Below are positions 1,739 to 11,102 of a stretch of 11,200 nt of DNA, piece after piece (positions within the stretch are counted from its first letter, which is position 1; each line of letters opens with the position of its first letter). The notes below the pieces were generated by a model, which saw only the letters and a list, made by a program, of their open reading frames with translations, had not been told where the DNA came from and did not search any database. The position numbers and the translations under genes were made by a program. The DNA lies in IMG/VR virus record IMGVR_UViG_2541047728_000018. The stretch is one strand, 5' to 3'. Source of the DNA: a virus. Lineage: Duplodnaviria; Heunggongvirae; Uroviricota; Caudoviricetes.

Positions 1739-1945
1739 ATGGAAGCAATCAGAAAAATTATCTTTCGCCAGGAAGTAAAAAAAATTATCCACATCAAGGC
1801 AGACAGCACGCTGCAAAGCATGATCAACGCCGGAGAATTTCCGCAGGGTTTTCGCGTTGGTTTACGCCGTCGCGGATGGTATGAGGATGATGTGTTGGCC
1901 TGGCAGAAAGAACGCGAACAGGAAGCACGCGGAACGGCTGCTTAA
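1739..1945 (+). CDS. alpA: AlpA-family phage transcriptional regulator / excisionase-like HTH protein
   Basis: 68-aa ORF; ...LQSMINAGEFPQGFRVGLRRRGWYEDDVLAWQKER matches the AlpA family pattern (helix, then F-P-x-x-x-x-x-G-x-R-x-x-x-W, then acidic tail). Its position after int is typical of P4-like and PICI-like islands. Confidence 0.8.
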   Translation: MEAIRKIIFRQEVKKIIHIKADSTLQSMINAGEFPQGFRVGLRRRGWYEDDVLAWQKEREQEARGTAA

Positions 1946-2327
1946 CGGGTATCACAGATATGACAAACACGAAAAAAGCGGCCCCGATATGGAGCCGCCT
2001 TTCTGAACAATTAACCCGCTGCGCCTTATGTGTATGTGATCCCAAACATAAGCACGGGGATGATAGCCGCTATCAGGCTGGTGGGCAATGCAATCAGTCT
2101 GGTTCAGTGCGTTGCCATAACTGCGAAGTTCTCTCCTTTGATGAGTATTCTTTAAGGTACTTCTCAAGGGCAAAAGAACACGGCGCGAATCGTTCTGATT
2201 CATGCTCTTTCTTTCTGCGTCGTCTTTTTCGTGCAGGTGATGTTTTTTCGGTTGATTCTTCGTTGGTCATTGTGTGCGCCTGTAAAGCAATGCGCCGTAG
2301 TACCTCACACCACGGCGCTGATAGTTT

Positions 2328-2507
2328 TTATCCTTTGGGTTCTATGCCGCGTTGCTGTAATTCTTTGCGGATTATTCGCTTTATCCAGGCAGCAAGAGAA
2401 TCATCGCCGTCCTGTTGTTGTGCCTTTTCCATCTTTTCCCGTAAGTCAGGATCTAAACGGAACTGGAACGGAGGATTACCACGCCTTTCGTTTTTGTGTG
2501 TTGACAC
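2328..2507 (-). CDS. Ribbon-helix-helix (Arc/CopG-like) DNA-binding protein, 59 aa, GTG start
   Basis: Not in the supplied ORF track (59 aa). Minus-strand translation: VSTHKNERRGNPPFQFRLDPDLREKMEKAQQQDGDDSLAAWIKRIIRKELQQRGIEPKG. Beta strand with alternating hydrophobics (FQFRL), helix A, G/D turn and helix B fit the RHH pattern. Strong SD GAGGTG (complement of 2516-2521) 8 nt upstream of the GTG. Confidence 0.45.
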   Translation of the reverse strand: MSTHKNERRGNPPFQFRLDPDLREKMEKAQQQDGDDSLAAWIKRIIRKELQQRGIEPKG

Positions 2508-2528
2508 GTTAATTACACCTCATGTAAT
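2501..2528 (+). promoter_or_regulatory. Candidate rightward sigma70 promoter
   Basis: Consensus -35 TTGACA at 2501-2506; -10-like TGTAAT at 2523-2528 with 16-bp spacer. The palindromic operator lies just downstream. Confidence 0.3.
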
Positions 2529-2536
2529 GTATTTAT

Positions 2537-2557
2537 GTGTAATGACACATTACACAC
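2537..2557. promoter_or_regulatory. Perfect 21-bp palindrome TGTGTAATG-ACA-CATTACACA (candidate operator)
   Basis: Perfect 9-bp arms with 3-bp spacer, in the divergent interval between the minus-strand RHH gene and the rightward small-ORF/primase operon. Confidence 0.45.
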
Positions 2558-2562
2558 AATCA

Positions 2563-2607
2563 ACACAAAAAGCAAAGCCCCGCACTGTAGGAGCAGTAAC
2601 GGGGCTT
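2563..2607 (-). terminator. GC-rich hairpin; terminator-like on the minus strand, or a 5' UTR stem-loop of the rightward transcript
   Basis: Stem AAGCCCCG(c)ACTG ... CAGT(aa)CGGGGCTT (2575-2607). On the minus strand it is followed by TGCTTTTTGTG; on the plus strand there is no T tract. Confidence 0.35.
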
Positions 2608-2636
2608 CTAACCAACAACGTAAACTAGGAGCCGTT

Positions 2637-2834
2637 ATGGTTGCCGTAAATCATATACCACACCTTGTACACACACAAACGGCCTTTGTGTGGCGTTTTC
2701 TGGCACTGAGTGCCGGAGAATCTCAAATCATCCACGTAACCGCCTGGACGGAACGCGAAGCGCGTAGCCGTTGCCCGTCCGGTTGTGTTGCTGTATTTGC
2801 TGCCCGTATTCGCCAGGGGTCACATCATGCGTAA
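2637..2834 (+). CDS. Small protein (65 aa) with FVWRF...TEREAR...ARIRQG-SHA domain; possibly Icd-like (tentative)
   Basis: ATG at 2637 with AGGAG SD 5 nt upstream. The C-terminus is paralogous to the C-terminus of the next ORF. Family assignment is from memory of typical P4-like island annotations, not verified. Confidence 0.5.
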   Translation: MVAVNHIPHLVHTQTAFVWRFLALSAGESQIIHVTAWTEREARSRCPSGCVAVFAARIRQGSHHA

Positions 2835-3291
2835 AAACCGCTTGCAAAAAATTATCACGGGGCTGTATGCTTCCCCCGTCGCCCACATGGCGACCGGGTT
2901 TAGCAGCCTGAATACATCTGGCGGACAGCCGCCCACATCCGATAAGCGGTTTTTTTGTGTCCGTAAACCTACCCATACCCGCATTATGGCGGGGCGTAAC
3001 GGGGGAGCCTTTGTGCTCGCTGGTTTCCAGATGACCAGTCTGCTAACCCTGTTACGTCTCGCCACCATGTTTAGCAGCGTAGTAGCGAGACTCCTTAAAA
3101 TTCATCTGGGAGCCTTTCACATGGCTGTATTCGCACGCCCTTATTTTGTCTGGCGCTTTATGCAGTGCCTGACAGACAGTATTGCAATATTCACCGTTAC
3201 CGCTGCCACTGAGCGCGAAGCACGTGCACAGCTGCCGCACGCACATCTTATTTTTGTCGCCCGTATTCGCCAGGGGGGGAGTCATGCATAA
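2827..3291 (+). CDS. Protein (154 aa) whose C-terminal ~56 aa are paralogous to the preceding small ORF; alternative internal start at 3121
   Basis: Start overlaps the upstream stop in ATGCGTAA (2827-2834). C-terminus FVWRFMQCLTDSIAIFTVTAATEREARAQLPHAHLIFVARIRQGGSHA. ATG at 3121 has a GGGAG SD and would give a 56-aa paralog instead. Confidence 0.35.
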   Translation: MRKNRLQKIITGLYASPVAHMATGFSSLNTSGGQPPTSDKRFFCVRKPTHTRIMAGRNGGAFVLAGFQMTSLLTLLRLATMFSSVVARLLKIHLGAFHMAVFARPYFVWRFMQCLTDSIAIFTVTAATEREARAQLPHAHLIFVARIRQGGSHA

Positions 3292-3511
3292 AATACCCTT
3301 TGATGTTCTTGTTCATTCTGAAAACGCATTAATCCGCGCAAAGGAAATGGACGCATTACTACTTAAGTTAATTGATGTGCCGGAAAGTGGCGATGAATCT
3401 GATTCAATGATGTTTTCTGCCGTGCGTACGCTATTAACGCCTGTTATTAATGAATTAAATACAGTGATGGCAATTCACGAGAATAATAAAGCGCAGCACA
3501 CCGGAGAATAA
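3284..3511 (+). CDS. Hypothetical protein (75 aa)
   Basis: ATG 3284 overlaps the upstream stop in ATGCATAA (same coupling geometry as at 2827); SD GGGGGAG upstream. Acidic, helical-looking sequence. Confidence 0.5.
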   Translation: MHKIPFDVLVHSENALIRAKEMDALLLKLIDVPESGDESDSMMFSAVRTLLTPVINELNTVMAIHENNKAQHTGE

Positions 3512-10462: not shown

Positions 10463-10877
10463 CATTGGCGTAATCCGGCGCGGTAACTTGCTGAACTTAA
10501 AGCAAAGCGCAAAATTGCGCTGGCTGGTGGGCATGATGCCGATATGGTGATCCCCATAACGGAAATATCCACCAGCACGGCAACGGCAGAATAGCCACAA
10601 CACAGAAAAACCACGAATATGGGGTTTTTGTTATGGCATGGGCATGATGACCGCCCCTGCTCTGAATGGTGGAAATCACCACGCAGATCATCCACCAGCT
10701 TCGTTTTTATAAATTAAACATCCGGGAAAATCCGACCCTGAATTGTGCATTTTTTCAGCAAATCATTTTAGTTATACGTTTGGTTATACGGTTTAAAAGT
10801 TGAATCATATACATTATTTTAAATCATGAAGTTACACGCTCAATTAAACTACTCTCGTGGACCAAAAATCCCAAGAA

Positions 10878-10904
10878 AACCAACCTATTGCGGTTGGTTT
10901 TTTT
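10878..10904. terminator. Hairpin terminator, probably bidirectional, near the right junction
   Basis: Stem AACCAACC / GGTTGGTT with 6-nt loop, followed by TTTTTTT on the + strand and preceded by an A-rich tract (T-rich on the minus strand). Confidence 0.4.
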
Positions 10905-11102
10905 ATATCTGCATTTAATTCGATAAACAGACCGCGACACATCACGGCCTGTTTATTTTCTGTTATCAGAACGTCCAGACTACACCCGCCTGAGTTGTGC
11001 TGCTTTCTTCACAGGAGAAACGACTATCGATACCGAGCGTCAGGCCCGTCAATGTTTGCTCAAAGCCAGCTCCCGCATCAGTGTTCACGCTGTTGCGGCT
11101 GT

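Follow-up and report, generated by a model that had tools for sequence, protein, structure and literature searches.

A candidate Arc/Mnt-like repressor cassette and a predicted antisense RNA at the early promoter of an Escherichia coli phage-satellite island

The stretch of DNA analysed here (11,200 nucleotides of IMG/VR virus record IMGVR_UViG_2541047728_000018, called the window throughout) is an Escherichia coli phage-satellite island of the phage-inducible chromosomal island (PICI) / P4-like type. Between its alpA gene and its rightward operon lies a leftward pair of small open reading frames (ORFs), a gene for a ribbon-helix-helix (RHH) protein and an ORF of 58 amino acids (aa), orf58. 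The DNA upstream of the RHH gene carries inverted repeats and the predicted promoter of the rightward operon, P_R, and the RHH protein probably switches off this early promoter. The features on which the argument depends are listed first, with positions counted from the first letter of the window.

2328-2507, minus strand: RHH gene, 59 aa, running from a GTG start to the TAA stop at 2328-2330
2516-2521, minus strand: Shine-Dalgarno sequence GAGGTG, 8 nucleotides (nt) upstream of the GTG start
2501-2506, plus strand: P_R -35 element TTGACA, exact in 59 of 67 loci and found in both subfamilies of the RHH protein
2525-2530, plus strand: P_R -10 element TAATGT, after an 18-nt spacer, with a predicted start near 2537
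2535-2550, both strands: candidate operator core ATGTGT-AATG-ACACAT, a 16-bp palindrome whose central 4 nt vary
2536-2556, both strands: perfect 21-bp palindrome TGTGTAATG-ACA-CATTACACA, built 9-3-9
2511-2518, minus strand, and 2522-2529, plus strand: two GTGTAAT-like half-sites between the P_R -35 and -10
2494-2509: weak second palindrome TTGTGT-GTTG-ACACGT with 2 mismatches, over the -35 and the RHH start

ORF 2328-2507 on the minus strand is a genuine gene. An earlier note on this DNA, made from the letters alone, had described a 59-aa minus-strand RHH ORF with a strong Shine-Dalgarno sequence, and this description was borne out: GAGGTG has full complementarity to the 16S rRNA tail, and its GGTG was kept in the alignment of subfamily A described below. 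A search of 5.8 billion proteins returned 117 protein clusters, nearly all of 55-60 aa, from Enterobacterales, Orbales and Pasteurellaceae. A locus scan using one genome per species returned 68 loci, each a different species carrying the RHH gene, and the protein ended at 59 +/- 2 aa. An integrase on one side and/or Icd/DUF4222/primase genes on the other were present at at least 37 of the 68 loci, and the phage records gave four distant matches only, none of them characterised. The earlier note had called the gene unannotated, which was correct for the ORF track it was given and for nothing wider; an identical protein is held in RefSeq (WP_000103622.1), where it is named 'hypothetical protein' or 'YlcI/YnfO family protein' depending on the assembly. 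The gene was already known as a gene, and it is of interest for its context.

The product is supported, by sequence profiles and a structural model, as an RHH-like and specifically Arc/Mnt-like DNA-binding protein. A profile search gave a match to PHROG 228 'Arc-like repressor' (E=2.1e-6). Using hhalign, the family profile aligned with Mnt over 41 columns in strand-helix-helix order (P=0.0022, 29% identity) and with Arc at P=0.0027. The strand-helix-helix order within a domain of about 45 residues is that of the RHH (Arc/MetJ) superfamily, and the protein has both the N-terminal RHH strand pattern of hydrophobic residues alternating with polar or basic ones (PPFQFRL, aligning with the Mnt and Arc strands) and the Gly turn that leads into S/T/N where helix 2 begins (DGDDS). 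G10, N11, R17, G34, D35 and W41 were invariant in the family alignment (A1). The AlphaFold monomer had an extended N-terminus followed by helices at 20-33 and 38-52, with a predicted local distance difference test score (pLDDT) of 90-92 over residues 21-50, and comparison of the predicted fold returned RHH-fold matches including CopG and the MazE9 and CopA_SO antitoxin domains. The structure prediction and fold recognition that the earlier note had proposed point to an RHH-like product, specifically an Arc/Mnt-like one by the PHROG 228 and Mnt matches. The NCBIfam YlcI/YnfO N-terminal domain was matched at 20 bits (E=5e-4), under the 30 bits needed for membership of the curated model (NF041551). 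No RHH or Arc match was found in Pfam-A at E up to 1, and a sequence search of PDB gave no significant match for the RHH protein.

Two subfamilies of the protein were distinguished by their strand, GNPPFQFRL in A and GNKQIALRV in B, with helix 2 almost identical. In both subfamilies the TTGACA at 2501-2506, noted earlier as a consensus -35, overlaps RHH codons 1-3 on the opposite strand (GTG/ATG TCA AC, encoding M-S-T), and a TAnnnT hexamer lay 16-19 nt downstream of the -35 in 62 of 67 loci. We infer that P_R is a conserved early promoter starting near 2537. Upstream DNA was aligned from 40 subfamily-A loci of many genera. The alignment contained an invariant block GTGTTGACAC at 2498-2507, conserved blocks AATTACAC and GTAATGT (2524-2530), and a conserved block ATGTGT-nATn-ACACATTAC at 2535-2553 followed by a variable stretch. 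The arms of the core were invariant, its centre was variable and compensatory changes were absent, a pattern expected of a protein site and not of an RNA stem. The only perfect copy of ATGTGT-N4-ACACAT in the window is the one at 2535-2550, which lies at about +1 of P_R with its centre offset by 3.5 bp from that of the 21-bp palindrome. Four GTGTAATG-like sites are clustered in 2511-2555, and the rest of the window has them as often as chance predicts.

The 21-bp palindrome was the operator proposed in the earlier note. It exists as a perfect 9-3-9 repeat, located at 2536-2556 rather than 2537-2557. Apart from the window, one Citrobacter locus (L013) alone has it in perfect form, and in the other relatives it is imperfect. 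As an exact operator it is largely specific to the window; what is conserved is the offset 16-bp palindrome with its flanking repeats. The palindrome was also rejected as significant by itself, since 35% of dinucleotide-preserving shuffles of the window also had a perfect inverted repeat, counting arms of 9 bp or more and loops of up to 8 nt. The second such perfect repeat in the window, at 10876-10901, is an ordinary terminator. Beyond chance, instead, are the position and the conservation of the palindromic region. The weak palindrome at 2494-2509, 41 bp from the core, is a speculative second operator that is inseparable from coding constraint. No further operator copies were found elsewhere in the window, for example near alpA or int, and a 2-mismatch site at 2034-2049 is kept whatever the RHH type and so is not RHH-specific.

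The type of repeat followed the type of protein. ATGTGT-N4-ACACAT with at most 1 mismatch was found at 40 of the 42 subfamily-A loci, again from many genera, and at 0 of the 25 subfamily-B loci. Subfamily B instead had (G/T)TGT-N3-ACAC with at most 1 mismatch (19/25); in subfamily A the count covered the perfect form, GTGT-N3-ACAC, which was absent. This change of repeat type with strand type and cassette type is as a cognate repressor-operator pair predicts. The same was seen on a finer scale within E. coli, where the slot between a hairpin just after the RHH stop and the leader hairpin of the first operon gene (2574-2608, described below) holds at least six different cassettes, each encoding an RHH-type protein and carrying inverted repeats of a distinct kind over a TTGAC(A/G)-17-TAAAxT promoter.

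2292-2318, minus strand: hairpin just after the RHH stop, -22.1 kcal/mol, z=-3.0
Cassette 1: the window type
Cassette 2: O157:H7 type, 57 aa, strand SPPYQMRL, ATGGTAATTACCAT in two copies
Cassette 3: repeats GTGTATTTCACC / GGTGAAATACAC
Cassette 4: three copies of GTGTTCAACAC
Cassette 5: repeats GTGTGTTTCATG / CATGAAACACAC
Cassette 6: Nissle 1917 island, 101-aa type, with GTAAGAC / GTCTTAC

Comparison of window positions 2292-2608 with L003, L072 and L075-L079 gave sharp borders to a cassette made up of the RHH gene, the repeats and the promoters. Its left border is the RHH stop, just after the hairpin 2292-2318, and its right border is the terminator of the antisense RNA described below. The 101-aa Nissle protein matched PHROG 949/6522 and is a clear YlcI/YnfO member. 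The hairpin 2292-2318 itself was kept with all E. coli RHH cassette types and has invariant ends (GCGCC/GGCGC); one variant has a pair that is G.U on the minus strand only, and the U-tract of the hairpin is poor. Placed between the RHH gene and orf58, it may serve as an attenuator or as a weak terminator. A cassette mosaic of this kind, as in phage immunity regions, is the strongest argument for a cognate repressor-operator pair.

A second control element was predicted over the leader of the first rightward-operon gene.

2637-2834, plus strand: first rightward-operon gene, Icd-like (NCBIfam NF033153, E=5.8e-18; RefSeq annotation)
2566-2644, minus strand: predicted cis-antisense RNA of about 79 nt with two stem-loops
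2610-2642, minus strand: stem-loop 1, with an anti-Shine-Dalgarno CUCCUA in the loop and a closing helix that covers the first-gene AUG
2574-2608, minus strand: stem-loop 2, with a U-rich tail at 2566-2573, a predicted intrinsic terminator
2650-2655, minus strand: putative -10 element TATGAT of the antisense-RNA promoter

The minus-strand fold from 2644 to 2566 had an energy of -30.5 kcal/mol (z=-4.5). Over 34 loci, 95.8% of cells were paired and 15 of 22 pairs had a compensatory change, giving a covariation score of 0.373 compared to 0.171 in shuffles (reached by 0/500) and at most 0.093 for slid partners. The hairpin 2574-2608, which falls within the interval (2328-2612) singled out in the earlier note, was conserved with every RHH cassette type, and the two-hairpin RNA likewise occurs with all of them. 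Its non-Watson-Crick cells were G.U on the minus strand (C.A on the plus strand) 36 times and the reverse 7 times, and this asymmetry together with the U-rich run assigns the leader hairpin to the minus strand; on the same two grounds a plus-strand element was rejected. Upstream, TAnnnT stood exactly 8 nt from the start-covering (G/A/T)CCAT in 42 of 53 anchorable loci, while the codons overlapping this -10 encode differing residues (N-H-I, N-Y-T, Y-D-N, K-C-T). These results suggest a cis-antisense RNA of about 75-80 nt directed against the leader and ribosome-binding site of the early operon, and this RNA and the repressor are both presumed to act on the Icd-like gene 2637-2834. A permissive Rfam scan of 2250-2720 returned sub-threshold chance matches only (best 24 bits, gathering score 55), and no antisense RNA of this kind in P4-like elements was found in the literature searched. 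The antisense RNA is apparently undescribed.

We consider it likely, though well short of certain, that the locus encodes an Arc/Mnt-like RHH repressor within a control cassette between the integrase/AlpA side and the early operon, and that this repressor shuts P_R and autoregulates. RHH dimers, whose paired strands in this superfamily fit into the major groove at repeated DNA sites, would bind the nested inverted repeats at 2511-2556 with their core ATGTGT-N4-ACACAT, and as the repeats overlap the P_R spacer, -10 and start site, bound repressor would block the early operon. The repressor's own leftward promoter would fit into the approximately 50 bp between the antisense-RNA terminator and the Shine-Dalgarno sequence, and a promoter so confined would overlap the same repeats. 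Binding would then also autoregulate the repressor, as it does for Mnt and Arc at P_ant/P_mnt of phage P22. The antisense RNA would act as a second lock: starting just inside the first gene and terminated by the hairpin 2574-2608, it would base-pair with any P_R transcript that had escaped repression, over the transcript's 5' leader and ribosome-binding site, and further downstream the escaping transcript would meet the C4/CI-type RNA of the island. RHH gene, repeats and promoters would be swapped between islands as one unit, like a phage immunity region. A possible bypass, offered as speculation, is AlpA-driven read-through from the left across a terminator at 1972-2004, antisense to the RHH gene. 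In Pseudomonas, AlpA acts as an antiterminator (PMC7969949, PMC9371919), and this activity combined with the weak plus-strand side of the terminator would make such read-through possible. The arrangement is that of a PICI master repressor, divergent from the operon with sites over the operon's promoter, where promoter and sites are deduced from conservation. In such a role the RHH protein would also silence the island and would be inactivated by a helper-phage protein.

Several points weigh against a repressor acting in this way. The function is argued solely from position and comparison. The P_R -10 shares only three of its six bases with TATAAT (these being the critical T, A and T), which is why P_R was missed by a consensus promoter scan, and no confident assignment of the repressor's own promoter was obtained. 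Gene and upstream DNA are inherited together, so that the link between strand type and operator type stands on a few independent events and not on 67. The O157:H7 type has the same predicted DNA-facing P, Q and R with other repeats (ATGGTAATTACCAT), leaving the half-site unsettled. AlpA is the experimentally shown activator of Gram-negative PICIs and its overexpression alone induces EcCICFT073 (PMC6092414), so any RHH repression must be bypassable. The suggestion in the earlier note that this is the repression switch of the island agrees with the promoter overlap and the Arc/Mnt-like geometry, but is unproven as a claim about the whole island, where AlpA is the shown activator and two RNA controls adjoin.

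The protein could also bind the repeats without being the main silencer. It might control copy number or replication, as CopG with RNAII does in pMV158, or activate its own side or excision, with AlpA and the RNAs governing induction. We regard this as doubtful. In its favour, an RHH gene together with an antisense RNA over the ribosome-binding site of a replication operon's first gene is reminiscent of plasmid copy control, AlpA by itself is enough for induction (PMC6092414) and the island also contains a C4/CI immunity RNA. However, the repeats sit on the P_R spacer, -10 and +1, which is a repressing position, and the RHH gene is divergent from the operon, unlike copG, which is a first gene. 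The comparative data fit a master switch and a fine control alike.

It is improbable that the palindrome works as a 5' RNA hairpin of the rightward transcript, serving stability or processing, and is no protein operator. The palindrome does start at about +1 of the predicted P_R transcript, and a 9-bp stem is possible in the window. However, this stem is perfect only there and in L013, the ATGTGT/ACACAT arms never compensate whereas the adjoining true RNA helices do, the repeat type tracks the beta-strand type of the protein, and more repeats lie upstream of the start, in the promoter spacer.

There is likewise only a slim chance of a type II toxin-antitoxin pair in which the RHH protein would serve as antitoxin and autoregulator, orf58 or a neighbour as the toxin and the palindrome as the toxin-antitoxin operator. 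An NCBIfam VapB antitoxin model matched weakly (E=0.012), but at 16 bits compared to a cut-off of 60. Some homologues are labelled 'HicB family' by the Joint Genome Institute (JGI) and the MazE9 and CopA_SO antitoxin domains are among the fold matches, but in the predicted structure the RHH domain fills nearly all 59 aa and would leave no toxin-binding tail. No co-conserved toxin, the mark of a type II antitoxin, was found beside the RHH gene; its conserved partner is the divergent promoter and operon. There is a small ORF downstream on the same strand, but this ORF, orf58, occurs only in the E. coli/Shigella loci among those compared while the RHH gene occurs in at least 68 species, and it is separated from the RHH gene by 57 nt that include the conserved hairpin. 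Whatever the RHH type, orf58 stays with the alpA-side segment. orf58 was rejected as partner or toxin of the RHH protein on its restriction to E. coli/Shigella and its independence of RHH type.

2094-2270, minus strand: orf58, a highly charged 58-aa protein (RefSeq WP_162829750.1)

orf58 is probably a real, weakly constrained small gene. It matches PHROG 21027 (function not known) at E=2.9e-12, its ATG was present in 11/11 and its stop in 10/11 E. coli island variants with indels in multiples of three, and the ratio of nonsynonymous to synonymous change (dN/dS) was 0.17-0.44 in its own frame compared to 0.21-0.74 in the opposite frame. After the TAA the RHH frame stays open for 77 codons (19 linker codons plus the 58-aa ORF), so the frame left open in the earlier note is there and is slightly longer than the 75 codons given. 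Three explanations had been put forward for it. A nonsense-interrupted longer gene is refuted: in the comparison with orthologues that had been recommended the stop at 2328-2330 was conserved in position, at 59 +/- 2 aa, across the 68 species, 59-aa relatives dominate, and the length of the post-stop frame ranged from 0 to 500 codons and was usually a few. The other two, an adjacent in-frame small gene and chance, are both right in that orf58 is a separate gene and the shared frame is coincidental. A run of 19 stop-free linker codons has a probability of about 0.4 and frame sharing is expected 1 time in 3, neither of which is remarkable, and the open frame beyond the RHH stop has no function.

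That the real gene is instead the plus-strand ORF 1960-2628, with the minus-strand ORFs as its shadows, can safely be dismissed: although this frame is open in 11/11 E. coli variants and long in most loci (median 197 codons), and in several genomes the NCBI Prokaryotic Genome Annotation Pipeline (PGAP) calls it an 'Icd-like' pseudogene, its third codon positions coincide with those of both minus-strand genes as in a classic shadow frame, and it lacks a conserved start or stop (its ends range between -89 and +1183 nt and between 92 and 1148 nt), meets stops in the intergenic part in half of the loci and crosses the terminator, the promoter and RNA helices with compensatory changes, while the third-position excess is absent outside orf58, dN/dS is lower in the minus frame in 9/10 pairs and both the length and the sequence of the RHH protein are conserved across orders. 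We therefore rejected this 222-codon ORF as a gene and treat it as a shadow ORF. Further examples are L003 3459-3938 and, from O157:H7, L072 1411-2355; in O157:H7 the shadow ORF reaches 314 codons, fused to Icd-like. The real 57-aa RHH gene of O157:H7 (L072 1854-2027, minus strand) is thereby left unannotated. As PGAP puts a spurious 'Icd-like pseudogene' in place of the RHH gene in such genomes, annotation-based comparisons miss the RHH gene.

The candidate repressor resembles several known systems. By analogy, its closest mechanistic relatives are Arc/Mnt of Salmonella phage P22 (immI) and CopG with RNAII of pMV158, and its closest functional analogue is Stl/Rpr of the Gram-positive PICIs. 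With P22 it shares the strand (PPFQFRL here, PHFNFRM in Mnt, PQFNLRW in Arc) and, as predicted, a palindromic operator over overlapping divergent promoters, with autoregulation likely. It differs in that there is no Pfam Arc match and only 29% identity to Mnt, the element is a satellite whose operon encodes Icd-like proteins and a primase and not an antirepressor, and a single RHH gene stands in place of the Arc/Mnt pair with its binding predicted. Plasmid pMV158 has the RHH repressor CopG and the antisense RNAII, and R1 has CopB and CopA, in both cases acting on replication operons. In common with pMV158, the window would combine a small RHH repressor with a short two-hairpin antisense RNA at a translation-initiation region. 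In contrast, copG stands first in the operon that it represses, unlike the divergent RHH gene, and the predicted antisense target here is the Icd-like first gene and not a replication initiator. Stl proteins are larger helix-turn-helix proteins. Like Stl/Rpr of the Gram-positive PICIs (Staphylococcus aureus pathogenicity islands, SaPIs), the RHH gene is a putative regulator divergent from the replication/packaging operon, on the integrase side, with sites between divergent promoters, but there is no homology and the documented Gram-negative trigger is activation by AlpA (PMC6092414). The P4 CI / P1 C4 immunity RNA (RF01695) occurs in the window operon as well, as a negative control on the same transcript; compared to the RHH/operator unit it is separate, on the sense strand and about 450 nt downstream. 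YlcI/YnfO (NF041551; the DUF3950 proteins of the DLP12 and Qin prophages), the name used by RefSeq for the identical protein, is a family without known function, so the name explains nothing.

The remainder of the island is consistent with its assignment.

1-1242: integrase
1739-1945, plus strand: AlpA-like helix-turn-helix gene (Pfam Phage_AlpA, E=0.0035; RefSeq annotation)
1972-2004, both strands: bidirectional terminator hairpin, conserved, with a U6 tract on the minus strand
2982-3069, plus strand: C4/CI-type immunity RNA (Rfam RF01695, 72.7 bits, E=5e-13)

Its gene order agrees with that of Gram-negative PICIs, as well as cf-PICIs, which form capsids (PMC6092414; bioRxiv 10.1101/2022.09.08.507074), and relatives of the island are integrated beside tRNA-Pro, between yejM and narP. 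The terminator at 1972-2004 ends the leftward RHH-orf58 unit and is weaker on the plus strand, after alpA. The rightward operon begins with two Icd-like ORFs with the embedded C4/CI-type RNA, followed by DUF4222 and a P4-type primase, and its later genes encode SSB, major capsid and decoration proteins and TerS. The Icd-like unit is in tandem duplicate (2726-2843 and 3186-3300) with the C4 RNA between the copies, the direct repeats being 70-77% identical and 457-460 nt apart. An inverted-repeat scan found the loop segment 3037-3049 of the C4/CI-type RNA complementary to 2897-2908 and 3066-3077. These complements resemble seqA and seqC of P4, and with them flanking the RNA the window has every part of a P4-type RNA immunity unit, some 450 nt away from the RHH operator. 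A steady link to C4 RNA was not found, as a match at gathering score was present in 2 of 20 other scanned loci, both Pasteurellaceae. None of the 17 Enterobacterales and Orbales loci reached the Rfam gathering score. C4 and isrK (seqA-like) adjoin the RHH homologue in the Pasteurellaceae loci L062 and L069, and int-alpA RNA (Rfam RF02996) was present in all three Pasteurellaceae loci (L053, L062 and L069).

The window also contains 11 Chi sites (GCTGGTGG) in 11.2 kb compared to 0.34 expected from shuffles, at positions 1163, 2077, 3740, 4593, 4854, 6154, 8041, 10040, 10523, 10569 and 10692. The average Chi density of the E. coli genome would give about 2.5 sites per window length. There are 13 Chi sites in the Nissle island, and the site at 2077-2084 lies inside a 14-nt block invariant in 11/11 aligned E. 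coli island variants. A possible role of these sites is to shield the satellite's linear DNA from RecBCD. Towards the island's right end there is a strong intrinsic terminator at 10876-10907 (AAAACCAACC-tattgc-GGTTGGTTTT and then a T run).

The founding paper on Gram-negative PICIs describes the islands as 'transcribed unidirectionally and rightward' and states that the difference from Gram-positive PICIs 'is a mystery' (PMC6092414). The searchable papers on these islands, this one included, name no repressor and no leftward gene; in the zone of the RHH cassette, PMC10111431 has only 'immunity repressor RNAs' and Bro-family proteins. Searches of the YlcI/YnfO and RHH-in-PICI literature found nothing on the RHH gene. 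The RHH/operator reading is well supported by comparison of sequences, and the RHH gene with its repeats on the early promoter is a testable candidate for the repressor missing from Gram-negative PICIs. The antisense RNA would add a second control, one not described in the literature searched. A broader proposal is tentative, and we think it more likely to fail than to hold: the RHH cassette would be an unrecognised master repressor of Gram-negative PICIs, cf-PICIs and P4-like satellites, the counterpart of Stl/Rpr, with the many exchangeable cassette types (at least six in E. coli) acting as helper-specific sensors and the antisense RNA, as a new family, completing a two-layer lock. If this were true, phage proteins would inactivate the sensor types, or AlpA-driven read-through coming from the left would override them, and the published picture of transcription in one direction without a repressor in these islands would be overturned.

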